Virus record (IMG/VR): IMGVR_UViG_3300042870_001240
Source of the DNA: a virus
Taxonomy: Duplodnaviria > Caudoviricetes
Strand: one strand, 5' to 3'
DNA length: 64,000 nucleotides
The notes under the pieces are model-generated. The model was not told the origin of the DNA. It saw only the letters and a program-made list of their open reading frames with translations, and did no database searches. A program made the position numbers and the translations under genes. Shown here one piece after another: positions 4,838 to 53,424 of the stretch. Within the stretch, counting starts at the first letter, position 1. Each line of letters starts with the position of its first letter.

Positions 4838-5137
4838 TTAGGATTTAAATCCCTCAATGATTTGTAATAGTTTGTCAGCTCGTTTGTCAGTATGACTTTT
4901 AGATTCTTGATGAAGTTCATCGATACGTCTATAGATGTGGTCAACAGTAACGTCTAACTCACGTTTATTTTCGTCTAAAATTCTTTGGTCGTAATCAACA
5001 TCTCTTTCATAAGATATTCTGAAATCTTCCAAATCTTTTTTTGTTCTAACAACCTTAACTAACCCCCAAACAAGAGCAACAATAAAAATTATTGCAATAA
5101 TCGAAAGGACACCTAAAGTAAAATAAAATGTTTCCAT
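4838..5137 (-). CDS. Membrane-anchored coiled-coil hypothetical protein (start probably ATG 5137)
   Basis: N-terminal hydrophobic helix followed by a charged helical region. Confidence 0.65.
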   Translation of the reverse strand: METFYFTLGVLSIIAIIFIVALVWGLVKVVRTKKDLEDFRISYERDVDYDQRILDENKRELDVTVDHIYRRIDELHQESKSHTDKRADKLLQIIEGFKS

Positions 5138-7194: not shown

Positions 7195-7347
7195 ATGAAA
7201 AAAGTAATTTTCGCAATAGTAATTGCAGGTAGCGTAATGTTATCATCATGCGGTGGTTCAACCACAAAATGTGAAGTCTCATCGACTGATACAACAACAG
7301 TTGATTCTGTGGTAACTCAAACAGTCGACACCGTTAAAACAAAGTAA
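7195..7347 (+). CDS. Small lipoprotein, 50 aa (not in ORF track)
   Basis: MKKVIFAIVIAGSVMLSSC lipobox followed by a Thr-rich tail GGSTTKCEVSSTDTTTVDSVVTQTVDTVKTK. Confidence 0.8.
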   Translation: MKKVIFAIVIAGSVMLSSCGGSTTKCEVSSTDTTTVDSVVTQTVDTVKTK

Positions 7348-7384: not shown

Positions 7385-7952
7385 AATGGTTAATTAATTT
7401 TTTTATTTTATTAATTTCCTCTTTAATAAGTGGGTTACCATTTATAATATTTTCCTTAAAAAACGCATTACCAACAACACCAAATGGTAACGCAATTAAA
7501 TCAATGAATGGATTTCGGGTTTTACCTGTTCTATAAGTGGATGTAGATTTAGTTTCCTTTTCCTTTTTATTCTCAACGTCTTTTTCTCCACCGTTAGATG
7601 TTACAATATTTCCTGATAAAAATTTATTGGCATCAATCTTATCATTATTCTTATCCGTCACCGCATACTCAATTGGAGAATCTCCAACAGTCCCAATAAT
7701 ACTCCCTTGTTTAACTTTATCCCCAACAAATGACATTATTCGATTAACCTTACAAAAATTAGAGAAATAAGTATTACCATTAATATTATGAGCAATTTTA
7801 ATATTACCGTCACATTTAAATTTATCTGAAGATACAACAACACCTTCTGATGGGTTACGTATTACGTCAGAATTATATGAAGAGAACTCAATTGTTTTTG
7901 AAAACATCGGAGAACTTATTCTGGCATTTGGTAATGGATTTAAAATCTTCAT
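7383..7952 (-). CDS. M23 (LytM)-like domain protein, probably catalytically degenerate
   Basis: GVVV...IKIAH...VGDKVKQGSIIGTVG pattern, but the HxxxD and HxH zinc motifs are absent. Confidence 0.6.
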   Translation of the reverse strand: MKILNPLPNARISSPMFSKTIEFSSYNSDVIRNPSEGVVVSSDKFKCDGNIKIAHNINGNTYFSNFCKVNRIMSFVGDKVKQGSIIGTVGDSPIEYAVTDKNNDKIDANKFLSGNIVTSNGGEKDVENKKEKETKSTSTYRTGKTRNPFIDLIALPFGVVGNAFFKENIINGNPLIKEEINKIKKLINH

Positions 7953-8635
7953 AAGTCTATCATTTTTTTAATACGAGCAATTTCCTCATTTAATGGATTT
8001 GTTTTGTCGTTAGTCGATTCTGCCGTAATGGCGTTCCATAGTTTATCACCTGTGGCTTTTAATGACTTACCATCTAGACCTAAGACACCATAAATTGAAC
8101 TCCCATAATTGGTTTTACTTATTGTCGTTGTTGTAGTTACGGAAGAATCAGTTTTTGTATCAGTTTTTGGGGCTTCAGGTGCCTCGACAGCTTTATCTAT
8201 TGAAATTTGTTTACCCTTATAGTTAGCATTAATCCATCTAATAAACTCTCTAAGTGTTGATTGGTTTCCCGAAAAATCTACTCCAGCACCAACTTTTGGT
8301 TGTCCTTGGAATTCTTTATAATGAAAACTATTTTTGGCGTGTTTTCCAATTTTACCATCCGAATCATTTTTAGCGTATGGATTTTCAGTACTTGAAAGTC
8401 CCATTCCTTGTGCCTTTTCAATTAATTTCATCATTACATCTCGATTTGTTGTTCCGATATGTAAATGGTCATCATGGTTAGTCCAAGTTATTCTATCTTT
8501 TATTTTTCCACCATCAGAACCTTTATCAAACTCATCAGCGGGATTTCCTGTTACAGGATTATAAACCAATTCATCGATTCCTGCCAAATCCGATTCGGTA
8601 ACGATTAAAATATCTTCTAGTTTTGTTTTTCTCAT
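7949..8635 (-). CDS. M15/LAS-like zinc peptidase domain with permuted motif order
   Basis: HDDHLH precedes HAKNSFH...GAGVDF. Confidence 0.5.
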   Translation of the reverse strand: MRKTKLEDILIVTESDLAGIDELVYNPVTGNPADEFDKGSDGGKIKDRITWTNHDDHLHIGTTNRDVMMKLIEKAQGMGLSSTENPYAKNDSDGKIGKHAKNSFHYKEFQGQPKVGAGVDFSGNQSTLREFIRWINANYKGKQISIDKAVEAPEAPKTDTKTDSSVTTTTTISKTNYGSSIYGVLGLDGKSLKATGDKLWNAITAESTNDKTNPLNEEIARIKKMIDL

Positions 8636-23424: not shown

Positions 23425-24867
23425 TTAAAGTTCGAATTCTAAATCATCCACATTTATATTTTGTTGTAATTGGTCTTGTATTTCTTTTTCCGCTTGTTTA
23501 ATTTGTTCAGGTGTAACTTCACCATTTTCTATTTTTTCAGTACATGTTGCCCCATTTAATCCTAACGCCGCACAAAGTGCCGTTGTGACTAAAAATGCGT
23601 TACCCGCTGATTTAACAATAACACCTTTAGCAGGAATTACCTTACCTAAATCAGGTCTATAGGATTTATTTAAAAAGTCCTTAGCTTTTTGTCCAGTACT
23701 AACAGGTTTAATTTTGGTTGACGCCTTTGTGGCGATTTTGCCTCCACTACCCGCAACCATATCGTCAGTTATTTTACTTAATTGAGCGGTAGCTCTTGAC
23801 CCCCAACTTTTTAATGTTGTCATTCCTAATTTTTCACCAAGCCAAGTAGCGGCTTGGGTTATATAACCACCCAATTTAACTATTCCACCTTTAATGGCGT
23901 TAAATACTTTTAATAATACTCCTCCTTTAGAAACCGCAGCTTTACCTAAACTAGCAAAACTTTTAATCCCCATGGTTGCCGCTTTAACAACTTTACCCAA
24001 GGCAGGTAATAATAATGAAATAGCGTCAATCACAATATCCATAACAGACCATTGATATTCACCCGATTCATATTTACCACTCATCATTTTATATAAATCC
24101 CAAAGAAGTAATGCTCCAAAAATAATAACTGTTGGTATTTGACCGATTGCAGGAATCATAGATATTCCTGTTAATACAGCAACACCACCTGCAGACATAA
24201 CTGCTCCTCTAATACCCTCCATTAAACACTCAACAAAATTATTTGATAAACATTTATATGCGGATTTAACGGCATTTTTAACGGTGTCCCAAAGAGCGGC
24301 ACCTTTTTCTTTAGCGTAATTCCAAATACCTTTTTGTTGTATTTGATTTATTTGTGATGCTCCCCATTTTGCAAATTGTTGGGTTTTTTCTTTACCATAA
24401 TTGTAAACATTTTTAGCTCCTTTGACAACTGCCCTACCCCAATCCGCAGGATTATACCATTGTTCTAAAAGGACCTTAAACGATTCCCATGACTCAGTAA
24501 TTCTTGATTCAATAATAAGTCTATCGACAGATTCGTTAATTAATAATAAATCACCACCAAATATATTCTCCCATTCTTTAATTAAGGTTATGGAATTTTT
24601 GGGTCTGTATATTTCAATAATATTGGCTAAAAATTTTCTTGGTGCTGCGGCGTACTCGACAAGGTCTAATTGACCTGTCTTAAATTTAAAATCAAAATTT
24701 TCTTTCATAATGTCTATAGCGACATTTAAATTATTATAGGTATATGAAAGGTAATTTTTACCATTTAAGTCGTTTAACTGTTCAGAAAGTTTTACAACGC
24801 CTCTATTTGTAAAAACATATTGTAAATTATGTGACACTCCTTCAAAGGATAGTTTTGTTTTTTTCAT
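23425..24867 (-). CDS. Gly/Ala-rich protein with hydrophobic hairpins, candidate ejection protein
   Basis: GGVAVLTGISMIPAIG...IIFGALLLW and IDAISLLLPALGKVVK segments. Confidence 0.55.
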   Translation of the reverse strand: MKKTKLSFEGVSHNLQYVFTNRGVVKLSEQLNDLNGKNYLSYTYNNLNVAIDIMKENFDFKFKTGQLDLVEYAAAPRKFLANIIEIYRPKNSITLIKEWENIFGGDLLLINESVDRLIIESRITESWESFKVLLEQWYNPADWGRAVVKGAKNVYNYGKEKTQQFAKWGASQINQIQQKGIWNYAKEKGAALWDTVKNAVKSAYKCLSNNFVECLMEGIRGAVMSAGGVAVLTGISMIPAIGQIPTVIIFGALLLWDLYKMMSGKYESGEYQWSVMDIVIDAISLLLPALGKVVKAATMGIKSFASLGKAAVSKGGVLLKVFNAIKGGIVKLGGYITQAATWLGEKLGMTTLKSWGSRATAQLSKITDDMVAGSGGKIATKASTKIKPVSTGQKAKDFLNKSYRPDLGKVIPAKGVIVKSAGNAFLVTTALCAALGLNGATCTEKIENGEVTPEQIKQAEKEIQDQLQQNINVDDLEFEL

Positions 24868-32132: not shown

Positions 32133-32271
32133 TCCTCGAAAGAGGGCTTTTTGGACCGTTATCGTTATGATAACAAAATTAAGGGGGAAGTTCGCTACTA
32201 CCCCTTTTTTTATGCGGACACTAATAATAGGAATAAATTGATAAATGTATATATTTATTAATAAAAAAGTT

Positions 32272-32550
32272 ATGAAAAAATTCTTTAATCAATTGTTTTG
32301 TGATAACAATTCAATCAACGAAAAATCTGTAGTTGGGGTTATGGCATTTATTATGATGTCTCTATTCGCTTGTGCGGATATCGTTACAGGTTTTTTAGGT
32401 AAACCATTAGTTATTAACGAGTTTATCTTTAACTCATTCCTTATCTTAGTGTTAGGTTCATTTGCTATCGGTTCTGTTGACAAATTTGTCCACAAGAAAC
32501 ATGGTAGTGATGATTCTGAAACACCAAGTAACGAAGAAGTTGTAAACTAA
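32272..32550 (+). CDS. Two-TM small membrane protein, holin-like
   Basis: Two TM helices and a charged C-terminus. Confidence 0.5.
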   Translation: MKKFFNQLFCDNNSINEKSVVGVMAFIMMSLFACADIVTGFLGKPLVINEFIFNSFLILVLGSFAIGSVDKFVHKKHGSDDSETPSNEEVVN

Positions 32551-33718: not shown

Positions 33719-35590
33719 TTACTTATTATTCACCTCTTCAAATTCGACATCGGAACCATTAAATTCCACATCACCTGTTTGGTCATTAACCTGGTCATAC
33801 AGGTCCTGTGAAATCTTTTGGAATTTTAGATTCACCTCATCAACTAATGATTTGGATAATTCTACGTCCTTTTTACTGTGAGCCTCTTTTAATTTTTCAA
33901 GAGTTGACGTTATCTCAGACTTTTGTTCTTCGGATATTTTACCTTCCAAATCAGTTAACGATTTTTCAACGTTAAAAATTGTGCTGTCTGCGATATTAAT
34001 TGCGTCAGCATCTTCTTTTGCTTTTTTATCAGACTCAGCATTAATTTCGGCCTCCTTTTTCATTTTTTCAATCTCCTCTTTAGATAATCCTGAAGAAGAT
34101 TCAATTCTAATTGATTGTTGTTTGTTTGTTGCTTTATCCATTGCCGAAACATTTATAATACCGTTAGTATCAATATCAAAAGTAACTTCAACTTGAGGAA
34201 CACCTCTCATCGCAGGTGGTAAGCCATCTAAATGGAATCTACCAATAGTTCGGTTATCTCTAACCATACTCCTTTCTCCCTGCAAAACGTGAATTTCAAC
34301 TGACGGTTGATTATCAACTGCCGTTGAGAATACCTGTGACTTCTTAGTTGGAATCGTGGTATTTGATTCAATTAGTTTTGTGAATACTCCACCCATTGTT
34401 TCAATACCCAAAGATAATGGTGTTACGTCTAATAACAATACATCTTTTACGTCTCCCGCTAATACACCACCTTGGATTGCCGCACCAAGAGCGACCACCT
34501 CATCAGGGTTAACTCCTTTTGAAGGTTCTTTACCAAAGAACTTTTTAACCGCATCTTGTATTGCCGGGATTCTTGTTGTTCCACCAACAAGGATAACCTC
34601 ATCAATATCAGAAACCTTAAGTTTTGCATTTTTCAATGCCGTTTTACAAGGTTCAATGGTTCTTTTAATTAAGTCGGCAGAAAGTTGTTCAAACTTTGCT
34701 CTCGTTAATGTTTTTACCAAGTGTTTTGGTCCAGTTGCATCGGCACTTAAATAAGGTAAGTTGATTTCTGTCTGAGGAGATGATGATAATTCAACCTTTG
34801 CTTTTTCAGCACCTTCTCTTAACCTTTGTAATGCCATAGCGTCTTTTGAGATATCTAAACCACCATTATCGTTCTTGAATTCCTCAACCAAGAAATCAAT
34901 AATGACTCTGTCAAAGTCATCACCACCTAAATGAGTATCCCCATCGGTAGATAATACCTCAAACACCCCATTACCAAGGTCTAATATAGATACGTCATGT
35001 GTACCACCTCCACAGTCAAATACAACGATTTTCATGTCTTTTGACATCTTATCAAGACCATACGCCAACGCCGCGGCGGTAGGTTCATTGATTATACGTC
35101 TAACAATTAATCCAGCAATTTCACCAGCTTCTTTAGTCGCTTGACGTTGTGCGTCGTTAAAATACGCAGGTACGGTAATAACCGCCTCAGTAACTTCAGT
35201 CCCCAAATAATCTTCAGCGGTTTGTTTCATCTTTTGAAGAATCATTGCCGAAATTTCTTGTGGTGAATACAATCTATCTTCTATAGATACTCTTGGTGTG
35301 TTCCCGTCACCTTTAACTAATTTATACGGAACTCTACCAACCTCACCTTTACTTTCGTCAAATGTTAAACCCATAAATCGTTTGATTGAGTAAACCGTTT
35401 TTTCAGGGTTTGTTACCGACTGTCTTTTTGCAGGGTCTCCGATTTTTCTTTCACCACCATTAATGAATCCAACAATTGAAGGGGTGGTTCTTTTTCCTTC
35501 ACTGTTTGTAATAACGACAGGTTCTCGTCCTTCCATGACCGTTACGCACGAATTTGTAGTTCCTAAATCTACTCCTATTATTTTTCCCAT
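33719..35590 (-). CDS. dnaK: Hsp70 chaperone DnaK
   Basis: [40 protein letters not shown]. Confidence 0.97.
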
Positions 35591-35743: not shown

Positions 35744-36781
35744 TTAATCAGGGGATAACGAATATAGTTTGATGAATCTTCTTTTCAGTTGTTTACCAGC
35801 ATTGTTGATTCTTGCTTGAAATCCTTTCATTAAACCCAAAATATGACTAGATTTTTCAATCCTCTTATTTGGTTGTAATTTCTGATATTTTAACTGTTTG
35901 TAGTAATCGGTTATAAACCAAATATAAAGATTTTTCATTATAGACACAATACTGTCGGGTTTTTGGTTTTCAATTTTTTCAATTAAGGTATCGAACATAA
36001 CATCAGCGTTAAATTTTTCCATAACTTCCGCTGCCATATAATATCGGTGTTTTTTAAATTCTTCAAAGGGCATTCTCAATCTAACCCCATACATTTCTTG
36101 CACCATTGCTCTCATTTCATAAGGTTCGGAAAAATATACCATTTGAAGAAATTCACTCCAAACTTCGAATATATCTCTTGGGATATTGTAGTTTTTACCA
36201 CCTGAATGACTTAACGCACTATTAATATTCCCTAACCCACTTAAAGACCTTTTATAAAATTCTAACATATGATTACACTCATGTGAAATACTATCGATTA
36301 AATCAGACATTAAATCATCAATATACTCTTCCGTAAAATCTTTTCTAATATAAACATCCAAATCAAATTTAGCATTTAATGTGTCGTCAAGTTCTGATAA
36401 TATGTGTTTTGGTAAATCTTTACTTGGTCTCTTTATAAAAGAATATTTCCCAACTTTAGACTCTATCTGTTCCGCACCTCCACCAGTACTAAATTTATAG
36501 GGCATCTGACTATTACTTTTGACATAGAGATTTAAGTCAATTCTAATCTCCTCAATTGGAAATTCAAGGTAACTCTCGAGGTCTTGTTTCCACACTCTCG
36601 ATAAATCTTTAAGTCCAATCACCAACTTTTGTTTACCAGGTTGCTTATGTTTTGTAAAGTCAATTACAATAGGTCTTGTTTTTTCATAAATTAAGTTAGC
36701 ATAATCCACGGAAGCTCTGGAAACCCCCATGTCTTCATTAATAAGTTTGGTATATTGGGATTCGTTTACAATAATTTTCAT
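35744..36781 (-). CDS. HExxH zincin-like protein with targeting-like N-terminus
   Basis: MKIIVNESQ; ISHECNH...PYEMRA. Confidence 0.6.
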   Translation of the reverse strand: MKIIVNESQYTKLINEDMGVSRASVDYANLIYEKTRPIVIDFTKHKQPGKQKLVIGLKDLSRVWKQDLESYLEFPIEEIRIDLNLYVKSNSQMPYKFSTGGGAEQIESKVGKYSFIKRPSKDLPKHILSELDDTLNAKFDLDVYIRKDFTEEYIDDLMSDLIDSISHECNHMLEFYKRSLSGLGNINSALSHSGGKNYNIPRDIFEVWSEFLQMVYFSEPYEMRAMVQEMYGVRLRMPFEEFKKHRYYMAAEVMEKFNADVMFDTLIEKIENQKPDSIVSIMKNLYIWFITDYYKQLKYQKLQPNKRIEKSSHILGLMKGFQARINNAGKQLKRRFIKLYSLSPD

Positions 36782-36949: not shown

Positions 36950-37774
36950 ATGAAAAACACAAAAATTTACAACGAACTAGTTCAGAAATTAAGAACATTC
37001 TTTTTGGATAAAGAATTTATTGAGGTTCCAACTCAATCAAGATTATCAATTTTGGCCGCGTGTGAGAATCCACATTCTGTTAAAACATTTGAGTATGGTG
37101 GCGAAATTTGGCCCCTCCCTCAAACAGGTCAAATGTGGTTAGAACATGAGTTACTTAAAAACCCTGAATGGCCAGGAGTGTTTTGTATATCAACTTCTTA
37201 CCGAGAAGAGAAAAATCCAATTCCGGGTCGACACGAAACGATTTTTCCGATGTTCGAATTTGAATCTAAAGGAACAATGATTGATTTAAAAAATTTAGAA
37301 ACAGAGTTGTTAAATTACTTAGGATTTGACGAACCTAAGTCGGTTACTTACGAAGGTATGTGTTCAAGATATGGCACACAAATTTTAGAAGACGAACACG
37401 AGAGTAAAATGTGGAAAGAAATTGGTGAAGTAGTTTCATTAGAACATTTCCCATTAAGAACTAACCCATTTTGGAATATGAAACACGGGACTGATTCAAT
37501 TTTTAATAAGATTGACGTTATATTATTTGGTCAAGAAACCATTGGTAGCGCAGAGAGAAGTTGTGATGTTGATAAAATGAGGGAGATGTTTTATACGATT
37601 GAAAATGGTGGGTATTCTGCAAAGTTGTTTGAATTATTTGGTAAAGAAAGGGTTGAAAAAGAACTTGAGGAATTTCTTTCTTACGACTTTTTTCCTAGAT
37701 TTGGAGCCGGAATTGGTCTTACAAGATTATCAAGAGCATGGGAGTTAAATTCCGTCAATTTGGAAATTATTTAA
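36950..37774 (+). CDS. asnA: Asparagine synthetase A-like protein (class II aaRS catalytic domain only, AsnRS paralog)
   Basis: Motif 2 SYREE...GRH...FPMFEFE, ETIGSAER, motif 3 GAGIGLTR; no anticodon-binding domain. Confidence 0.75.
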   Translation: MKNTKIYNELVQKLRTFFLDKEFIEVPTQSRLSILAACENPHSVKTFEYGGEIWPLPQTGQMWLEHELLKNPEWPGVFCISTSYREEKNPIPGRHETIFPMFEFESKGTMIDLKNLETELLNYLGFDEPKSVTYEGMCSRYGTQILEDEHESKMWKEIGEVVSLEHFPLRTNPFWNMKHGTDSIFNKIDVILFGQETIGSAERSCDVDKMREMFYTIENGGYSAKLFELFGKERVEKELEEFLSYDFFPRFGAGIGLTRLSRAWELNSVNLEII

Positions 37775-38004: not shown

Positions 38005-38430
38005 ATGAAATTAATTGGGTTACTTAAAGAAGAAACAAGTAAAAGTCGAATGATGAGACTCCTTAAAGATATGGGGTTTTCTAAGGAGGACGCTGAAGAT
38101 GAATTAGATGAAATAACCCATTATGTTAAAACCTTACCCGAAAAAATTAAATTATACAGAATTTTGGCGGTTGATAGTGAGGATAAAATTAATACTAAAG
38201 AGCTTGGGTGTCACTATTCTACAAGTAGAAAAGATTTGATTAATTCTCATACCTACGTCACAGGTTCAGGTGAAGAACATTATATCGTTACGGTAGTATC
38301 TCCTAAAAGTTTTATAGATGTTAATGAAACAATTGCAAACATAATTTTATATCCAAACGAACAAGAGATTACTTTAAAAAATAAAGGTAGAGGTGTTGAG
38401 GTGGTTTCAGTTAAAAAAATTAAACCTTAA
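38005..38430 (+). CDS. Hypothetical protein (start ATG 38005, MKLIGLLKEE)
   Basis: TATTTAT 5 nt upstream of the ATG. Confidence 0.6.
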   Translation: MKLIGLLKEETSKSRMMRLLKDMGFSKEDAEDELDEITHYVKTLPEKIKLYRILAVDSEDKINTKELGCHYSTSRKDLINSHTYVTGSGEEHYIVTVVSPKSFIDVNETIANIILYPNEQEITLKNKGRGVEVVSVKKIKP

Positions 38431-39107
38431 GAGTCCTTTTCTTTAGATGCGTATTTAACACCCATTATGGTTCCTATAATACTAAACGCATTTGTTAACA
38501 AAATACCAAACATATTTGACCATGTTGACCCAATGATTTGAGTATCTTTATTCATAAATAAAGAAATCATATACATAATTGTGGTAATTACACCAACAGA
38601 CATTATAACGCCTAAAGCGACCTTAACGATTGTTCCAATCAACTCGGTTTGACTTTTCTTTTGTAATAAATCTAAATCATTCATGGCGGCGTGTTTGGCG
38701 TTTTCTGCCTCAAGACGAGCCGATTCGGATTTACTCATAGCTATATGTAACTCTTCACTTATTCTTTGATTATCTTCTTTCCATGCGATTAATTCTCCGT
38801 TCTGAATTTCAATCTGTGTTTTGGTTTCCTCAACACTGGTTAAAGTTTCTTGTAACTCAACCATCATTCTTTGATTTTCTAAATTTAAATCGGATAACTC
38901 TTTATTTTGAGATTGGATTTGTTTTGTCATTTCCAATCTTCTTCGTCTAACTTCCTTGTCTTTAGAAACACAATAATCAATATACTCTTTAAATTCCTTA
39001 TCATCAGAGGTATCAATTACTTTGGCAATATTACCCTCAAGGGTAATATTTTTTGACTTATTTAAATCAATTAATTGTTGTTTACTATTTTTATCAAATA
39101 CTATCAT
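38427..39107 (-). CDS. Coiled-coil protein with two C-terminal TM helices, co-transcribed with the two-component genes
   Basis: Start overlaps the response-regulator stop; long heptad region; two hydrophobic helices. Confidence 0.65.
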   Translation of the reverse strand: MIVFDKNSKQQLIDLNKSKNITLEGNIAKVIDTSDDKEFKEYIDYCVSKDKEVRRRRLEMTKQIQSQNKELSDLNLENQRMMVELQETLTSVEETKTQIEIQNGELIAWKEDNQRISEELHIAMSKSESARLEAENAKHAAMNDLDLLQKKSQTELIGTIVKVALGVIMSVGVITTIMYMISLFMNKDTQIIGSTWSNMFGILLTNAFSIIGTIMGVKYASKEKDS

Positions 39108-39535
39108 TTATATACTTTAAATGGTGCGGTTCTGTTCTTGTAACTTTCGTAATCTTGTCTAAATTCCTCCAATCTTGGTTCTATATCATCAGATTTGATA
39201 ATCCAAAACTGAGCCCCAGCCTGAATGGCTTTAGCTTGTTCTTCAGGTTCATTACTTGAAGATATAATACCGATAACTACGTTATTACCGTATTCAAAGT
39301 TAACCTTACGGATAAGTTCAATACCGTCAAAGGACGAACCGATTATATTTAAATCCACAAACACGCATTCAGGTTTACCGTTTGGGTTCTTTTGCCAATC
39401 GGAAAATAATTTAGCCGCCTCGTCAGAGCTATTTAAACTTTTTAACGACAAAGTAATGTCTAATAAGGAACAACTGTCCTCAAAAACCAAATGGAATAAG
39501 TCCTCGTCATCCACTAACAAAATTGAATCAATCAT
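39104..39535 (-). CDS. Single-domain response regulator (receiver only)
   Basis: LLVDDED, VFVDLN (phospho-Asp), ISSS, IIKS. Confidence 0.88.
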   Translation of the reverse strand: MIDSILLVDDEDLFHLVFEDSCSLLDITLSLKSLNSSDEAAKLFSDWQKNPNGKPECVFVDLNIIGSSFDGIELIRKVNFEYGNNVVIGIISSSNEPEEQAKAIQAGAQFWIIKSDDIEPRLEEFRQDYESYKNRTAPFKVYK

Positions 39536-39548
39536 ATTTTTTCTTTTT

Positions 39549-41480
39549 TTATTTTATTTTTATTTTCATTTTAGTACCAATTTCATTCTTCTCACAAGTA
39601 ATCTTAAACTTATGTTCTTCCAAGATTGCGACACAAATATTTAACCCTAATCCAGTCCCAGATTCTTTTTGTCCTTCTTTTCTTGTATAAGGTTTGGATA
39701 AATAATTAAAATCGTCTTGAGTAATACCTCTACCGTTATCTTGTATGTAAATTGAATCCTCATCACCATATACCTTAACAAACTTTGTTTCGGAGTCGTT
39801 ATATTTTAAACCATTCCTAATTAGATTATCAACTGCGGTACAGAACAACGGTTCATTAAGTTCAATGGTTGGTAAATTATCGTCTAATATCACCTGACTT
39901 ATATAAGCCGTTGATGATAAATAATCTGCAAGAATATTTTTTACATTACATTCGGTCTTGTTTAATACCACATCTTTCTTAACTAGATTGGTAAACTCAT
40001 AAACCCCTTTATAAACTTTTTGTGAGTGTTTAAGACCTTCCTTAATCATTTTAAGTGGTGCCTCAATTTTAAGGTTAGTAATATCTTCTTGGGATAATCT
40101 CCTTTCTAATGAATTAACCCCTCTTGGTATATAAGTATTAATCCCTGAGTGCATATCATGTCTTAATATTTTAGCCGCGTGTTCTAAGTAGGTATTTTTC
40201 TTTTCAATTTCCTTCTTTTGTTCATAAGAAGTAGTAATGTCTGTAGCGATTTTCATAACACGATAAATCTTACCATCAGTACCAATAATAGGATTGTAAG
40301 TCGCCTGTAGATATACTAAAGACCCGTCTTTTTTGACTCTAACAATTTCACCTGAAAATAACTCACCATTATTTAATTTTTCCCAAAAAAGAGAATAGTC
40401 ATCGCTTTTCGAATATTCATCGTCAATAAAAATTCTGTGGTGTTTTCCGACAACCTCATCTTGTGACGAATATCCCATAGTACCTAAAAACAAGTCATTC
40501 GCAAAAATAATGTTACCTTCTAAATCAAATTCAATAACGGCATTAGATTTGTTTATCGCATTCATTCTATTCCGAATCTCCATCTCTTTTTTCTTAAGTT
40601 CCGTAACGTCTTGTCTAATTGATGAAAACCCGTCTAACTTACCATTCTTATCGAATTTTGCTTTGATGAATGTGTCAACGTAATATAATTCTCCTGATTT
40701 TCCTTTATTGGTAACAACGTCATTCCATATTTCACCATTCATTACCGTCTTATACATCTTACCCCAATAACCGTCAGGTTGTAATCCCGAATTAACAATA
40801 ATATGGTCCTTGCCTTTTACTTCGTCTAAAGACCATCCAGAAACTTCCTCAAATTTTTTATTAACGTAGGTTATTTTACCGTATTTATCAGCAACCGAAA
40901 CAATTGCGGCACTATTTAAAAAATTTTCAGTTTCTTTATTTATTCTCAATAAATCATTTCCTTCTTTAACTGAATAAGTAAAACTATAAAGAGATGATAA
41001 TAGTTGTGCAAAATCAACCTCAGAACTATCCCACTCTCTAAGTGTTAGTGACTCAATACAAATTACCCCAATGGTTTCCCCTTTATAAATAATAGGAACA
41101 TCTAACATAGATTTTACCCCAAGAGGTTTTAAATACGTTTCGGTAAAACAAGAAGTCGCTTGGTGTATTTCGGCATCATTTGCAATGATAATTGGGTTTT
41201 CTAATAACGCTAAGAAATAGGATTGGAAATCTTTTTTATAAAGTGTTATGTCTTGATACCAACTGTTTTCAGATTTAATATGTAATTGTTCACATATAAT
41301 TTCAGACTTATCTTCATTGTATAACCATATTGAACACCTATCGGCATTTATTGATTCCGTAACTTCTTTAGTTAATACTTTAGCACCTTCAGTTGTATTA
41401 CCTTCATAAAATAAAGGATTGTGTGATTGGGAGATAAGTACCTTATTTAATTTTTTAGTATAGTCAAGATGTTTTATCAT
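39549..41480 (-). CDS. Cytoplasmic sensor histidine kinase: GAF-PAS-PAS-HisKA-HATPase
   Basis: GAF (ADRCSIWL...LDVPI...GVICIE), two PAS/PAC domains, H-box ILRHDMH, N-box DNLIRNGLKY, QDNGRGI, GTGLGL; no TM helix. Confidence 0.9.
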   Translation of the reverse strand: MIKHLDYTKKLNKVLISQSHNPLFYEGNTTEGAKVLTKEVTESINADRCSIWLYNEDKSEIICEQLHIKSENSWYQDITLYKKDFQSYFLALLENPIIIANDAEIHQATSCFTETYLKPLGVKSMLDVPIIYKGETIGVICIESLTLREWDSSEVDFAQLLSSLYSFTYSVKEGNDLLRINKETENFLNSAAIVSVADKYGKITYVNKKFEEVSGWSLDEVKGKDHIIVNSGLQPDGYWGKMYKTVMNGEIWNDVVTNKGKSGELYYVDTFIKAKFDKNGKLDGFSSIRQDVTELKKKEMEIRNRMNAINKSNAVIEFDLEGNIIFANDLFLGTMGYSSQDEVVGKHHRIFIDDEYSKSDDYSLFWEKLNNGELFSGEIVRVKKDGSLVYLQATYNPIIGTDGKIYRVMKIATDITTSYEQKKEIEKKNTYLEHAAKILRHDMHSGINTYIPRGVNSLERRLSQEDITNLKIEAPLKMIKEGLKHSQKVYKGVYEFTNLVKKDVVLNKTECNVKNILADYLSSTAYISQVILDDNLPTIELNEPLFCTAVDNLIRNGLKYNDSETKFVKVYGDEDSIYIQDNGRGITQDDFNYLSKPYTRKEGQKESGTGLGLNICVAILEEHKFKITCEKNEIGTKMKIKIK

Positions 41481-41544
41481 AATAATAAATATACGTTAAT
41501 ACTTTACTTTTCATTATTATAAAATATTTATAATAAAAAACATT

Positions 41545-42363
41545 ATGACTAAATTAGGTTCAAAGGGAGATGTTGTTAAACAAATCCAACAAAAATTAGG
41601 AATTACCGCTGATGGTAATTTTGGTCCTGGTACAGAAAAATCGGTTAAAGAATGGCAAACCAAAAATGGTTTAACCCCCGATGGTGTCGTAGGACCCTCA
41701 ACTTTAGAAAAAATGGGGATTACTTCTGTCATTAAAGAAGATGTAATCATTCCGTCAGGAGGTCCATTAAGTCTTGAAAAATTAAAGGGTCATATTCCTG
41801 ATTCAGTAATCGCTCAAATCCCCGAGACGGCAATTAAATTTAACATTACAAACAATTTAAGGTTGGCTCATTTCTTGGCACAATGTAGTCATGAATCAGG
41901 GGGGTTTAAAGTGTTCCAAGAGAATTTAAACTATTCTGTTGATGGTCTTAAAAAGATATTCCCAAAATATTTCCCCGGTAATCTTTCAGAATCTTACGCA
42001 AAACAACCTGAAAAAATCGCTTCAAAAGTTTATGGTGGAAGAATGGGTAATGGTGATGAATCAACTAAAGAAGGATATAAGTTTCGTGGCCGCGGTTTTA
42101 TCCAATTAACCGGAAAATCAAATTACACTAACTTTACTAAGTTTATTGGTGAAGATTGTGTGGCAAATCCTGATTTAGTTTCGACAAAATATCCGTTGGC
42201 ATCTGCGGCTTTTTTCTTTAATAATAATAATCTTTGGTCTATTTGTGATAAAGGAGCTTCAGACGATGTTGTAACACAAGTAACAAAAAGAGTTAATGGA
42301 GGTACTATAGGTTTACCTGACAGAATCAAACATTTTAAAGAGTTCTATTCTTTATTATCATAA
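41545..42363 (+). CDS. Endolysin: peptidoglycan-binding domain plus GH19 chitinase-like lysozyme
   Basis: GSKGDVVKQIQQKLGITADGNFGPGT; AQCSHESGGF; GRGFIQLTGKSNY. Confidence 0.9.
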   Translation: MTKLGSKGDVVKQIQQKLGITADGNFGPGTEKSVKEWQTKNGLTPDGVVGPSTLEKMGITSVIKEDVIIPSGGPLSLEKLKGHIPDSVIAQIPETAIKFNITNNLRLAHFLAQCSHESGGFKVFQENLNYSVDGLKKIFPKYFPGNLSESYAKQPEKIASKVYGGRMGNGDESTKEGYKFRGRGFIQLTGKSNYTNFTKFIGEDCVANPDLVSTKYPLASAAFFFNNNNLWSICDKGASDDVVTQVTKRVNGGTIGLPDRIKHFKEFYSLLS

Positions 42364-44407: not shown

Positions 44408-44626
44408 TTATTTTTTAAATTGTTGATTAATCTTATTAAGACTTGAAAATAATTGGTTAATATCCAAGTTATTAGGTAATTGTCCTCCGTCTTTTGGAAG
44501 GAGGTTCTTCATATTTGATATAGAGTCAAACATTTTTTTACCGAATTTCTTCCACCAAATATACAACATAATTGTGATAGTTAATAGAACTACGACTAAT
44601 AAAGTTAAGATAATATTTAAAAACAT
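44408..44626 (-). CDS. Small membrane-anchored protein
   Basis: N-terminal TM helix followed by WWKK. Confidence 0.65.
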   Translation of the reverse strand: MFLNIILTLLVVVLLTITIMLYIWWKKFGKKMFDSISNMKNLLPKDGGQLPNNLDINQLFSSLNKINQQFKK

Positions 44627-48207: not shown

Positions 48208-49329
48208 TTAATTTGATAACGGTGCTTTTATACTTGGATGTGATTCATAGTTTTCTAGTATCACATCTCCAACTGAACTACAGAATATACCATCCCTAAC
48301 GTGTACCGTTGGTAACTTCATAGGTTCTCTACTAATTTGTTCTTTCGCCTGTTCAATATGATTTGAATATAAGTGAACGTCACCTAGATTACCAATCAAT
48401 TCATCAGGAACCATATTCATCTCATCGGCAATCATCATCAATAATAAACCGTATGATGCAATATTGAACGGTAGTCCAAGTAGTGTATCTACTGAACGTT
48501 GATTCCACATTAGAGAGATTGCTCGTTTAGGGTACCCATTATCATCTAACCATTTAGAGTATGAATAATCTCTATCCAGACTATCATTATGACCAAATAA
48601 ATCACATCTTCCTTTATGACTCAACTCTCTTGTATAAACTTGAAAACCATAATGACAAGGTGGAAGCACCATTTTATCTATCTCACCTACATTCCAAGCA
48701 TTAACCATTAATCGTCTTGAGTCTGGATTTGTTTTAAGGTCGTTGATTAGGTTTTGAATTTGGTCAATTGAATTATTTTGGTACGTTACTTTAACATCAT
48801 ATTTACTATAATCACCACCATCATGAATTAAGTCCATAACTTTAACTTTGTCAGAACTTTTTACATTTTCTAAATCATAATTTACTACATTCTTTCTTCC
48901 CCACTTTCTCCACTGCTTACCATAAATTGGACCTAATTCACCCCACTTCTCAGCAAACTCATCATCTGTTTTGATTTTGTTGATGAATTCTTCTATTGTT
49001 AAAAGTATAGGTCTAACTCCATACTCCCCAATTTTACTGCCTTCTTTAAGAATATAGTACTTATACGCATCACCATCCCAAATATGACAATTGTTATCAA
49101 CAAGGAATTTAATGTGTGTATCACCTCGTAAGAACCAAAGAAGTTCTGTTACAATTGATTTCCAAGCCATCTTTTTAGTTGTGAGTAAAGGAAACCCATC
49201 ACTCATTTTATGACGTATTTGTCTACCAAACACTGATAGTGTTCCCGTGCCTGTTCTGTCTTGTTTAGTCACTCCATTATCTAAGATGTCTTGAAGTAGG
49301 TCTGTGTATTGTTTATCTAATTTATTCAT
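48208..49329 (-). CDS. thyA: Thymidylate synthase
   Basis: DRTGTGT, LGPIYGKQWR, LPPCH, QRSVD, GLPFNIASY. Confidence 0.95.
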   Translation of the reverse strand: MNKLDKQYTDLLQDILDNGVTKQDRTGTGTLSVFGRQIRHKMSDGFPLLTTKKMAWKSIVTELLWFLRGDTHIKFLVDNNCHIWDGDAYKYYILKEGSKIGEYGVRPILLTIEEFINKIKTDDEFAEKWGELGPIYGKQWRKWGRKNVVNYDLENVKSSDKVKVMDLIHDGGDYSKYDVKVTYQNNSIDQIQNLINDLKTNPDSRRLMVNAWNVGEIDKMVLPPCHYGFQVYTRELSHKGRCDLFGHNDSLDRDYSYSKWLDDNGYPKRAISLMWNQRSVDTLLGLPFNIASYGLLLMMIADEMNMVPDELIGNLGDVHLYSNHIEQAKEQISREPMKLPTVHVRDGIFCSSVGDVILENYESHPSIKAPLSN

Positions 49330-52257: not shown

Positions 52258-53424
52258 ATGAAAGGAATAATTAAAAATATACTGAACGAAGCTCTTGGTG
52301 TACCTGAAGGTATTTTAGAATCTGCCGAAAGACTATATAAAATGTGTTTTAGTAGGATTAGTAAGATTACTGACCCTATTTTAAATGGTTCTGATGAAGA
52401 AGACTATAAATTCATTATTAGGTCTAAATTTAAAATTTCGGATTATACTTTTACTAAAATTAATTTAACCATAAACTTTGTTGAAACCGACCAAGTTGAT
52501 ACCGTTGAGCTTTATTCCATGGGGATTAATCATCAGTCTCAATTTAATGACCGTTTATTAAAACTAATCACGATTATGTCTCCAAACGAAGTTAGTATTT
52601 CAATTCAATTTGCTCTAACAGATACCGCAAAAATTTCAGACGTTATTGAGTTATGTAAACGTTCTAAAGATATTATGACAGCATCATTATCTCACGAATT
52701 AAAACACGCATACGACCATTATAAAAAACCTACACAATCTATAACACAAATTTCTAAGTATCAGGGACTCCAAAAAACAGGGTTTCAAATAAAACCAATT
52801 AGTGTTTTTTTATATTATCTTTACTTTGTCCACGGTGTTGAAAATTTAGTTAGACCTACCGAACTTTCATCATTAATGAAATCTAATAAAATCGGTAAAA
52901 AGGATTTTTACGATTTTTTAACCAATAGTAAAATGTATACTATGATGAAAAACATTAATAATTTTACTTATGAAGGACTAAAGTCGGAGTTAAAAGATTA
53001 TATACCTCAAATAGACGAAATACTTGACAGAGTTAATGAAAAAACATTTAACACTGATGAAGAAAAAATTGATGAAATTTTAAGACTTGTTTATGTTAAC
53101 CTTATTAATAATACTCTTAACACCACTAAATCAATAATGGTAAATAACTTTACTGAGTCTATGTTAGGATTTGCGGGGGAAAAAGACGAACTTTTTAGAA
53201 AAATTGTTAAATCTGTTTTAAAATTTGAAGATAATGAAAAAAAGTTCTACCTTTTCGAGGAAAAGAAATTCAAACATATATCAGGAATTATGATGAAAAA
53301 ATTATCCAAACTTTATTCGATGGCAAAAGATGAAAAATCTTCAATTAAAAATTGGGATTTACACCATAAAATTAATCGAACAAATGAGAATATACAATCG
53401 GAATATAAATTTAAGAGAAAATAG
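52258..53424 (+). CDS. HExxH zincin-like protein with ILNE site
   Basis: MKGIIKNILNEALGV; LSHELKH...VENLVRPTE. Confidence 0.6.
   Translation: MKGIIKNILNEALGVPEGILESAERLYKMCFSRISKITDPILNGSDEEDYKFIIRSKFKISDYTFTKINLTINFVETDQVDTVELYSMGINHQSQFNDRLLKLITIMSPNEVSISIQFALTDTAKISDVIELCKRSKDIMTASLSHELKHAYDHYKKPTQSITQISKYQGLQKTGFQIKPISVFLYYLYFVHGVENLVRPTELSSLMKSNKIGKKDFYDFLTNSKMYTMMKNINNFTYEGLKSELKDYIPQIDEILDRVNEKTFNTDEEKIDEILRLVYVNLINNTLNTTKSIMVNNFTESMLGFAGEKDELFRKIVKSVLKFEDNEKKFYLFEEKKFKHISGIMMKKLSKLYSMAKDEKSSIKNWDLHHKINRTNENIQSEYKFKRK

Follow-up and report, generated by a model that had tools for sequence, protein, structure and literature searches.

The stretch of DNA analysed here, hereafter the window, comprises 64,000 nucleotides (nt; 64 kb) of a virus of the Caudoviricetes (Duplodnaviria; IMG/VR record IMGVR_UViG_3300042870_001240). 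Its GC content is 31%, it looks like part of a jumbo phage, and near-identical DNA was found in at least 18 lake-water metagenome runs from 2020–2024. On its minus strand, between positions 38427 and 41480, lie three consecutive genes that encode a sensor histidine kinase, a stand-alone receiver and a protein with a coiled coil and two C-terminal membrane helices (CCTM), and this operon is divergent from an endolysin gene on the plus strand. The uncultured lake-water phage, like hundreds of its relatives, carries its own kinase, receiver and CCTM, which the original prediction, made from the letters of the window, had read as a phage signalling circuit.

The kinase (39549–41480, minus strand, 643 aa) contains, according to the Pfam domain calls, a GAF domain (nt 40989–41381; residues 34–164), two PAS domains, PAS-A (nt 40581–40916; residues ~189–300) and PAS-B (nt 40233–40541; residues ~314–416), and an ATP-binding CA domain (HATPase_c; nt 39555–39845; residues 546–642) that scores 53 bits against a cut-off of 26. 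The DHp domain (nt 39891–40208) is a divergent one: over residues 415–560, HisKA, HisKA_2, HisKA_3 and HWE gave no Pfam match, even at E ≤ 10, and because no HisKA-type family of Pfam matches, it is regarded as a divergent HisKA-like form. The phospho-acceptor His441 (codon 40158–40160) lies in the H-box ILRH441DMHSG and aligns, in an alignment of the full DHp-CA region (E 6e-9), with the histidine of the H-box SHELR of Thermotoga HK853, which we take to be the phospho-acceptor His260 of that kinase. The N box NGLKY (residue 556), the G1 box DNGRG (residue 581) and the G2 box GTGLG (residue 608) are in place as well, and the hydropathy scan detected no membrane segment, so that for the window the domain calls, hydropathy and motifs agree with the soluble GAF-PAS-PAS kinase with intact H, N and G boxes that had been described. 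No equivalog of NCBIfam exceeded its cut-off among the kinase, the receiver and the CCTM, and the sole lead was PAS-A, which is most like PAS1 of NifL (97 bits, far under the equivalog cut-off). PAS1 of NifL is a flavin-binding domain, and the likeness hints at redox or energy sensing.

The receiver (39104–39535, minus strand, 143 aa) has Response_reg as its only domain (33.6 bits against a cut-off of 30.2) and the phospho-acceptor Asp61 at codon 39353–39355. The receiver domain occupies residues 5–115, and the remainder is a conserved C-terminal tail of 28 aa, without an output domain; with its catalytic residues intact, the protein is the output-less receiver that had been predicted. Its length ranges from 142 to 145 aa in 142 complete copies, all four receiver motifs are kept in the receivers of 70 of 70 relatives, and D9, D10, D61, S92–94 and K114 are invariant in 27 relatives picked for diversity, among which the mean column identity is 87%. 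The matches listed in a homologue search, among 3,870 clusters, were all orthologues from the phage clade with ≥85% identity, a range that leaves cellular relatives out of view.

The CCTM (38427–39107, minus strand, 226 aa), which is the proposed output, was divided on the basis of its sequence, an AlphaFold2 model and an alignment of 40 relatives into a predicted cytoplasmic N-domain (38892–39107), a variable coiled-coil stalk (38652–38891), a first membrane helix (TM1; 38550–38648), a short outer loop (38514–38549) and a second membrane helix (TM2; 38451–38513) that is almost invariant among the relatives. In the model, with a mean predicted local distance difference test (pLDDT) score of 86, a small N-domain is followed by a single helix (residues 37–184) that runs into TM1, and by TM2 (residues 190–223), with 5 residues in the turn between the helices; by hydropathy the outer loop has ~12 residues. 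There is no signal peptide, positive charges flank the hairpin on its cytoplasmic side, and the C-terminus is rich in lysine; on account of the first two features, both ends of the CCTM would face the cytoplasm, with its first 150 residues within reach of the receiver. The ATG of the CCTM overlaps the TGA of the receiver (ATGA), and this overlap, together with the stalk and hairpin of the model, bears out the translationally coupled coiled-coil membrane protein that had been proposed. The CCTM belongs to no Pfam, PHROG, NCBIfam or PADLOC family, and every look-alike cluster listed for it in the protein atlas is a viral hypothetical protein. Neither Pfam nor PHROGs gave a holin-family match to it at E ≤ 1e-3, nor did Pfam when the limit was relaxed to E ≤ 10, and no PADLOC defence family was found for the kinase, the receiver or the CCTM. 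A kinship of the CCTM with XhlA was considered but not found, with no Pfam match at E ≤ 10 and no XhlA entry in a fold search against Swiss-Prot.

The endolysin gene (41545–42363, plus strand, 272 aa) carries PG_binding_1 (E 4e-14) and Glyco_hydro_19 (E 1e-9) and matches phrog_181 'endolysin' (E 1.5e-63), in agreement with the GH19 endolysin divergent from the kinase operon that had been named. A control region of 64 bp (41481–41544) separates the two genes and holds, as the coordinates confirm, the one TATTTAT per strand that had been noted in it: one on the minus strand (41485–41491), 4 nt before the kinase ATG, and one on the plus strand (41525–41531), 13 nt before the endolysin ATG. With 65 copies in the window against ~55 expected, TATTTAT is not over-represented; it is strongly positioned, since it lies ≤60 nt upstream of 29 of the 92 open reading frames (ORFs) kept by greedy non-overlap filtering of the window, mostly 4–21 nt from the ATG (for example, 7949–8635, 23425–24867, 35744–36781, 52258–53424 and 58403–58996). 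If TATTTAT is a −10-like element, the mRNAs would be leaderless or nearly so.

Among 70 distinct relatives, TATTTAT stands 4–6 nt ahead of the kinase ATG in 37 and within 40 nt of it in 41; ahead of the receiver it was found once in 70 (at 33 nt), and ahead of the CCTM in none of 80. A terminator-like hairpin occurs just upstream in the loci of many relatives. Because TATTTAT is present before the kinase but nearly absent before the receiver and the CCTM, and because of these upstream hairpins, the three genes look like one transcription unit. The box AAAGTAAAGTATT (41498–41510, minus strand) lies 6 nt upstream of the kinase TATTTAT; the kinase promoter is its only promoter-context occurrence in the window, and a loose form of the AAGTAAA-type box was observed upstream of the kinase in 21 of 70 relatives. 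The box may serve the kinase operon alone as an operator, although the receiver has no DNA-binding domain. Short contigs in two lake metatranscriptome runs match the CCTM, the receiver together with its junction to the CCTM, the kinase and the endolysin; they are possibly DNA, and transcription is not proven by them.

Conservation of the trio and exchange of its sensors

Protein-guided scans of IMG/VR yielded 114 relatives of the kinase and 251 of the CCTM, and 156 viral loci were fetched, in which tblastn detected the kinase 146 times, the receiver 147 times and the CCTM 151 times, always in the same order and on one strand. The order of kinase, receiver and CCTM is kept in ~150 viral contigs, and the operon of the window is in this way syntenic in related phages. 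Identity to the window copy ranges from 55% to 91% for the kinases and from 52% to 83% for the CCTM, with the receiver far more conserved than either. The ratio of non-synonymous to synonymous substitution rates (dN/dS) against the window copy is 0.08–0.17 for the kinase, 0.02–0.06 for the receiver and 0.10–0.25 for the CCTM, with synonymous sites near saturation, and all three genes are under strong purifying selection. The full-length kinases of the relatives keep the H-box and the G1 box in 71 of 71, the N box in 68 and the G2 box in 67. The phage signalling circuit of the original prediction is therefore real, intact and maintained by phages, as judged from the catalytic motifs, the ~150 contigs and the purifying selection.

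Five large relatives, four of them 294–322 kb in length and rated 91–100% complete (one with terminal repeats) and one of 254 kb rated 78%, each harbor one kinase of this type. A Response_reg match was obtained in four of the five; in the fifth (G004) it stayed under the threshold, and the receiver was found by tblastn (L154). In the lineage of the loci L087 and L092, a receiver and a CCTM (L087:5818-6923) diverge from a GH19 endolysin gene. A kinase is lacking on the two fragments, one of 15 kb and one of 95 kb (32% complete), and absence from the genome is not claimed. The kinase of the window is closest to that of L001 (91%), and its CCTM is closest to that of L035 (83%, against 71% for L001), which suggests that the operon at 38427–41480 is a mosaic formed by recombination within it. 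When the kinase core was compared with GenBank phage records, 16 weak matches of <33% identity were obtained; these were rejected as precedents, and several of them look like bacterial DNA filed as phage, such as Salmonella genome contigs and Acinetobacter 'phage' records annotated qseC/atoS. The receiver and the CCTM had no match, at the thresholds used, among 50,697 GenBank phage records, and in 185,579 species genomes the receiver turned up at six loci only, all in metagenome-assembled genomes (MAGs), so that the trio is regarded as restricted to phages.

At least eight kinase architectures were observed among the relatives. The longest combine a membrane hairpin with GAF and two PAS domains (707–728 aa), followed by the type of the window with GAF and two PAS domains (641–645 aa), GAF with one PAS (555 aa), hairpin with two PAS (528–541 aa), hairpin with one PAS (423 aa) and PAS only (353–375 aa), and two further forms (440–473 aa) carry a signal-peptide or membrane helix, an extracytoplasmic domain of ~110–160 aa and a second helix. 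Some relatives' kinases have a periplasmic sensor domain. Approximately 51 of 71 distinct full-length kinases of the relatives have one or two predicted N-terminal membrane helices, and in ~33 these form a hairpin of two membrane helices; the description of the kinase as soluble holds for the window copy but not for most of its relatives. Between the first kinase and the receiver, 16 of 61 distinct loci have an insertion that consists of a lipoprotein gene and a second kinase with an extracytoplasmic sensor, as at L124:2825-4785 and L010:9908-11919. The inserted lipoprotein measures 204–214 aa, both it and the second kinase have a signal peptide ending in ...YSQ, and the transmitter of the second kinase is 61% identical to that of the window kinase. 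Since this second kinase with a shared transmitter lies upstream of a single receiver, the gene order indicates that several inputs converge on one receiver and one CCTM. The sensor domains are freely shuffled, while the receiver and the CCTM hairpin stay nearly fixed.

The receiver-CCTM pair and its fused forms

In 72 of 76 distinct pairs, the receiver gene runs into the CCTM gene, its stop sharing 4 nt with the CCTM start in 39 pairs and 1 nt in 33; in the other four pairs, stop and start lie within 5 nt of each other. A search of 1.84 billion representative proteins with a CCTM profile gave 265 relatives, including domain-shuffled forms. In two of these, a sensor is fused directly to the CCTM stalk and hairpin: PAS-PAS in P0171 (371 aa) and GAF in P0138 (360 aa). 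No kinase core or receiver was found on their contigs (12 kb, in two samples, for P0171; 10.7 kb, plus a second contig from another sample, for P0138). With sensors joined straight to the hairpin in the absence of a kinase core and a receiver, these proteins look like one-component versions and argue that the hairpin is the end point of the sensory signal, which adds support to the output role that the original prediction had suggested for the membrane protein. A further form, P0199 (348 aa), has a FecCD-type ABC permease attached to the N-domain and stalk of the CCTM; it may be either a fusion that occurs in nature or a chimera of the assembly, and it was set aside.

The opposite part of the CCTM was recovered in P0246, P0256, P0259, P0262 and P0268 (318–349 aa), where the N-domain, including a stalk start of the RRKRLEITKQIQ type, is followed by a HisKA-HATPase kinase core. 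In the contexts of P0246, P0256 and P0262, the gene begins at the stop of a 143-aa receiver, and a kinase lies upstream of that receiver where the contig reaches far enough (P0262 and P0256). The loci L165/L166 and L168/L169 have the same layout, a receiver followed, with the same overlap, by the N-domain and a HisKA-HATPase core in place of the hairpin, as do two short contigs with P0246. The receiver is 73% identical to that of the window in L165 and 65% in L168; in L165, the upstream kinase core is 60% identical to that of the window and shares its unusual H-box, and the N-domain is 45% identical to residues 1–71 of the CCTM. The L165 locus looks cellular because its GC content is 41% and it is flanked by AraC-type, DUF6799 and AP-endonuclease-type genes, with YceI upstream on a second contig that carries the same protein.

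A scan of 185,579 species (one genome each) with the receiver alignment gave the six MAG loci mentioned above, labelled Verrucomicrobia, Bdellovibrionota, Alphaproteobacteria (two), Bacteroidetes and Proteobacteria. A kinase followed by a receiver was found in all six and a gene of the CCTM N-domain type in five, the sixth contig ending inside the receiver. At least the Bacteroidetes locus, a contig of 29.8 kb (C58), is a bacterial-type version with the N-domain joined to a kinase, and it is this same MAG that accounts for the N-domain in one of 401 sampled genomes of the phylum and one of 201 of the family. Judged from these gene layouts, the pair of receiver and N-domain protein is kept and the output changes, being a hairpin in phages and a kinase core in the bacterial-looking loci. 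Such retention of the pair is as expected if the N-domain of the CCTM is the docking site of the receiver.

Structure prediction gives a weak indication in the same direction. The predicted complex of the receiver with residues 1–155 of the CCTM had an interface score (ipSAE) of 0.50 (runs 0.50, 0.56 and 0.49), against 0.00 for the best control, a result that the tool grades as 'weak support'; the partners had pLDDT ≥86, and ≥88% of the contacts were common to the runs. In the calibration of the ipSAE mark, 58 passes came from 80 solved complexes and 2 from 110 mismatched pairs; with scores of ≤0.60, only 7 of the 80 solved complexes passed, along with both mismatches. These counts apply only roughly here as our own alignments were used for the receiver and the CCTM.

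The existence of a homologous cassette with a kinase, a 73%-identical receiver and an N-domain-kinase (L165/L166, L168/L169 and C58) raises the alternative of a host-takeover device, in which the phage receiver drives or blocks a host N-domain kinase, or the CCTM N-domain soaks up a host receiver. The far higher conservation of the receiver would be expected in that case, if it must fit several surfaces. However, one or more kinases and a translationally coupled N-domain partner are encoded by the phage itself, the cellular version is rare in the sampled phylum and family, and the one-component fusions need no receiver, so that we consider such cross-talk with the host improbable. The same cassette, with the bacterial-type domains of the trio, could also be taken as the mark of a passenger cluster, recently captured from a bacterium and without a role in the phage life cycle. 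This is scarcely credible for a trio kept in ~150 viral loci at dN/dS values of 0.02–0.25 and with synonymous sites near saturation, whose GC content (~31–32%) matches the phage and not the cellular-looking loci (41%), and whose hairpin output was found in viral contexts only and is absent from the cellular-looking loci examined.

Lysis genes around the trio

Linkage was counted in 58 distinct loci with ≥3 kb of flank on both sides, and a peptidoglycan hydrolase was found within 3 kb of the trio in 40 of them, of which 29 have it within 500 bp. The original prediction had named an outcome that would count against it, namely that the operon is recently acquired from a host, not conserved and unlinked to lysis genes; this is contradicted on both counts, by the conservation and selection described above and by these 40 loci. 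The GH19 gene is divergent from the kinase, as in the window, in nine loci and directly follows the CCTM on the same strand with a gap of ~20 bp in 11; elsewhere it lies 0.4–1.5 kb after the CCTM, directly before the kinase on the same strand, or further downstream in convergent orientation. The proximity persists across at least six gene orders and through replacement of the enzyme family, which may be GH19, Phage_lysozyme or Peptidase_M15_3 near the trio, with a glucosaminidase beside a fusion gene. In L039, a Peptidase_M15_3 endolysin and a small membrane protein come just after the CCTM, and in L152 the trio has GH19 before it and M15_3 after it.

Another arrangement was observed in five loci (L053–L057, referred to as the L054 type), which run from a small two-helix protein, a Phage_lysozyme endolysin and a PG-binding protein to Phage_holin_4_1 and then kinase, receiver and CCTM, the holin gene (27.4 bits against a cut-off of 22.2) being directly upstream of the kinase. 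Around the one-component fusions, the cassettes are clearer still. The GAF-hairpin fusion (L164) follows a lipoprotein gene and is itself followed by genes for a two-helix small protein, a membrane coiled-coil protein, a lipoprotein, a small ORF, GH19 and a glucosaminidase endolysin; the PAS-PAS-hairpin fusion (L163) lies between a membrane coiled-coil protein and a lipoprotein, with a one-helix protein also in the cluster and a GH19 endolysin 0.8 kb on. No PHROG family could be assigned, at any useful threshold, to the small membrane genes that surround the endolysins, and terms such as 'holin-like' and 'spanin-like' refer to their topology only.

Lysis control through a phage phosphorylation pathway with a membrane-hairpin output is the best reading of these gene arrangements, and it is one that we believe and doubt in about equal measure. 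Several observations weigh against it. No recognised hydrolase was found within the fetched 4–8 kb in 18 of the 58 loci, and in one relative of 209 kb (G006) the GH19 endolysin is ~50–65 kb away from the trio. Genes for DnaK, a metallophosphatase and an AsnA-like protein also persist nearby, and part of the linkage could be inherited synteny; in the window, the first and last of these are a full-length DnaK (Hsp70; 33719–35590, E 2e-254) and a 274-aa protein of the class II synthetase fold (36950–37774, phrog_29758), both of which are near the signalling operon in many relatives. The hydrolase linkage is strong and frequent but not obligatory, and a part of it may be due to inherited gene order. 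The CCTM matches no holin, antiholin, spanin or XhlA family, and the search of its model against Swiss-Prot structures returned chance helical matches only (best E 1.1). Class II holins are small proteins with two membrane helices (N-in/C-in) and a charged cytoplasmic C-terminus; the CCTM, with a hairpin and a cytoplasmic N-terminal part of ~150 aa, is large for a holin. Loci with a Pfam holin have the CCTM too, and it can therefore not just be 'the' holin. Fast divergence is usual among holins, whereas TM2 of the CCTM is nearly invariant. 'Late' expression rests only on a promoter-like box that is common to about one third of the genes in the window (29 of 92). Finally, the phages concerned are uncultured and missing from the GenBank phage records.

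Some of these points suit a real pathway that serves another membrane process, such as superinfection exclusion, control over how the membrane is energised while a 300-kb phage completes its long infection, or the arrest of host division or secretion, with the hydrolases as neighbours by descent. The 18 loci without a nearby hydrolase, the distant endolysin of G006, the equally persistent and unrelated DnaK, metallophosphatase and AsnA-like genes, and the lack of a holin-family signature in the CCTM would all be accommodated by it, and a near-invariant TM2 suits a conserved membrane partner in the host better than it suits fast-evolving holins. Descent alone does not readily account for a hydrolase proximity that survives at least six gene orders and the replacement of the enzyme family; moreover, both one-component fusions lie in clusters with endolysins and spanin- or holin-like membrane genes, and a Pfam holin directly precedes the kinase in the L054-type loci. 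We regard this alternative as rather unlikely, and lysis control is kept as the working interpretation.

Two further genes of the window are possibly associated with the operon. A 72-aa protein with one N-terminal membrane helix and no family match (44408–44626, minus strand) has a homologue directly after the endolysin in those relatives whose endolysin is just behind the CCTM, and a 101-aa two-helix membrane protein (32245–32550, plus strand), holin-like by topology only and without a significant family match, has a homologue ~1 kb from the endolysin in the relative L004. At a distance of 30 kb from the endolysin, a 99-aa protein (4838–5137, minus strand) that starts with a membrane helix and has a charged tail, probably helical and coiled-coil-like, and a 50-aa lipoprotein-like ORF (7195–7347, plus strand) are spanin-like by topology only. 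The window also encodes a T4-type RNA ligase (9345–10376), a thymidylate synthase (48208–49329) and two tRNAs. An adenylosuccinate-synthetase-like gene (11121–12131, minus strand) matches phrog_1211, which is labelled as a modified-adenine pathway enzyme (E 1.8e-69); if its product is a PurZ-type enzyme, adenine in the phage DNA might conceivably be replaced.

Proposed pathway and known systems

In the pathway proposed for lysis control, the kinase would read a signal through exchangeable sensors, GAF and two PAS domains in the window and membrane hairpins or periplasmic domains in relatives, autophosphorylate on His441 and hand the phosphoryl group to Asp61 of the receiver. The receiver, without an output domain of its own, would dock on the cytoplasmic N-domain of the CCTM, with which it is co-made by coupled translation, and the signal would pass down the coiled-coil stalk to the two-helix membrane hairpin. 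There the hairpin could form a holin-type lesion or restrain a holin, so that release of the endolysin would be advanced or delayed. We infer the phosphotransfer, the docking of receiver to CCTM, the action of the hairpin, the nature of the signal, which the original prediction took to be host state, and the timing. Support for the phosphotransfer is indirect and comes from the adjacent genes, from the single kinase and receiver of near-complete genomes and from the transmitter module shared by the second kinase of 16 of 61 loci. The full proposal, that a freshwater clade of jumbo phages times lysis by its own phosphorelay, with the phosphorylated receiver binding a new docking domain and switching a holin- or antiholin-type hairpin, is tentative, and on balance we lean against it in so specific a form.

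Single-domain response regulators that act by protein contact are familiar from CheA-CheY-FliM, DivJ/PleC-DivK-DivL, Cph1-Rcp1 and Spo0F. The phage trio resembles the CheY, DivK and Rcp1 pathways in the His/N/G1/G2 core of its kinase, in a receiver of ~140 aa that has the DD/D/S/K residues but lacks an output domain, and in the docking to be expected of such a receiver; in the bacterial-looking relatives the presumed docking target is itself a kinase, just as DivK acts on DivL. Unlike those pathways, it belongs to a lytic-looking clade of jumbo phages, its DHp domain falls outside the HisKA families of Pfam, and its partner family, with N-domain, coiled coil and two-helix hairpin, was found here in viral contexts only.

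Accounts of phage lysis timing usually invoke a holin clock, and the classic example in which it receives sensory input is T4 lysis inhibition; the T4 holin T is a protein of 218 aa. Two T4 proteins act on holin T to hold it back, the antiholin RI from the periplasm and RIII from the cytoplasm (PMC11413866, PMC8385771, PMC6832632). A soluble cytoplasmic protein that acts on the cytoplasmic part of a large (~220 aa) membrane protein is the nearest functional analogy to the proposed step from receiver to CCTM. In T4, however, superinfection is sensed by direct protein binding, without phosphorylation or a kinase, and lysis timing in the present clade would be regulated by a different route; the kinase, the receiver and the CCTM had no match to the T4 t, rI or rIII families in Pfam or PHROGs. 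The LytSR-LrgAB/CidAB systems of Staphylococcus and Streptococcus tie a two-component system to holin- and antiholin-like membrane proteins that affect lysis (PMC3507848). They are cellular, and LytR is a DNA-binding regulator of lrgAB transcription, whereas the phage receiver has no DNA-binding domain and would act post-translationally.

The best-known phage-borne kinase of this class is the AgrC histidine kinase that the temperate Clostridioides difficile phage phiCDHM1 carries with AgrB/AgrD (PMC3901668). Those genes look like a quorum-sensing set derived from the host, in contrast to the kinase or kinases, receiver and dedicated effector found here across a clade and beside lysis genes. 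Reportedly, phiCDHM1 has no response regulator of its own. XhlA, which works with the holin XhlB and the endolysin XlyA in PBSX of Bacillus subtilis, is a membrane-associated coiled-coil protein, and the CCTM differs from it by two C-terminal helices and a cytoplasmic part of 150 aa. In a full-text search of ~8.4 million papers and preprints, phrases for histidine kinases, response regulators or two-component systems encoded by phages had no match. A published survey of 224 jumbo phages brings up kinase signalling solely to state that its divergent receiver domains have no part in it (PMC7824862).

A viral clade thus has classical two-component chemistry, coupled to a partner of a new kind and probably turned to a new task. 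The trio constitutes a complete phage-owned pathway of kinase, receiver and effector, conserved in hundreds of abundant lake phages, some of which can take in several kinds of signal (cytoplasmic through GAF and PAS, membrane and periplasmic) during infection. The fusions define a small modular domain behind the stand-alone receiver in phage and bacterial-looking loci, a candidate class of response-regulator targets. As far as gene content and order can tell, these phages probably use phosphorylation signalling to decide the time of lysis, a use that is not known to have been reported from any phage. If the output is indeed lysis, the timing of bursts in natural waters would be a regulated decision and not a fixed programme, and the pathway, if the proposal is true, would be the first lysis clock found in a virus to be gated by phosphorylation, with a new family of response-regulator targets.

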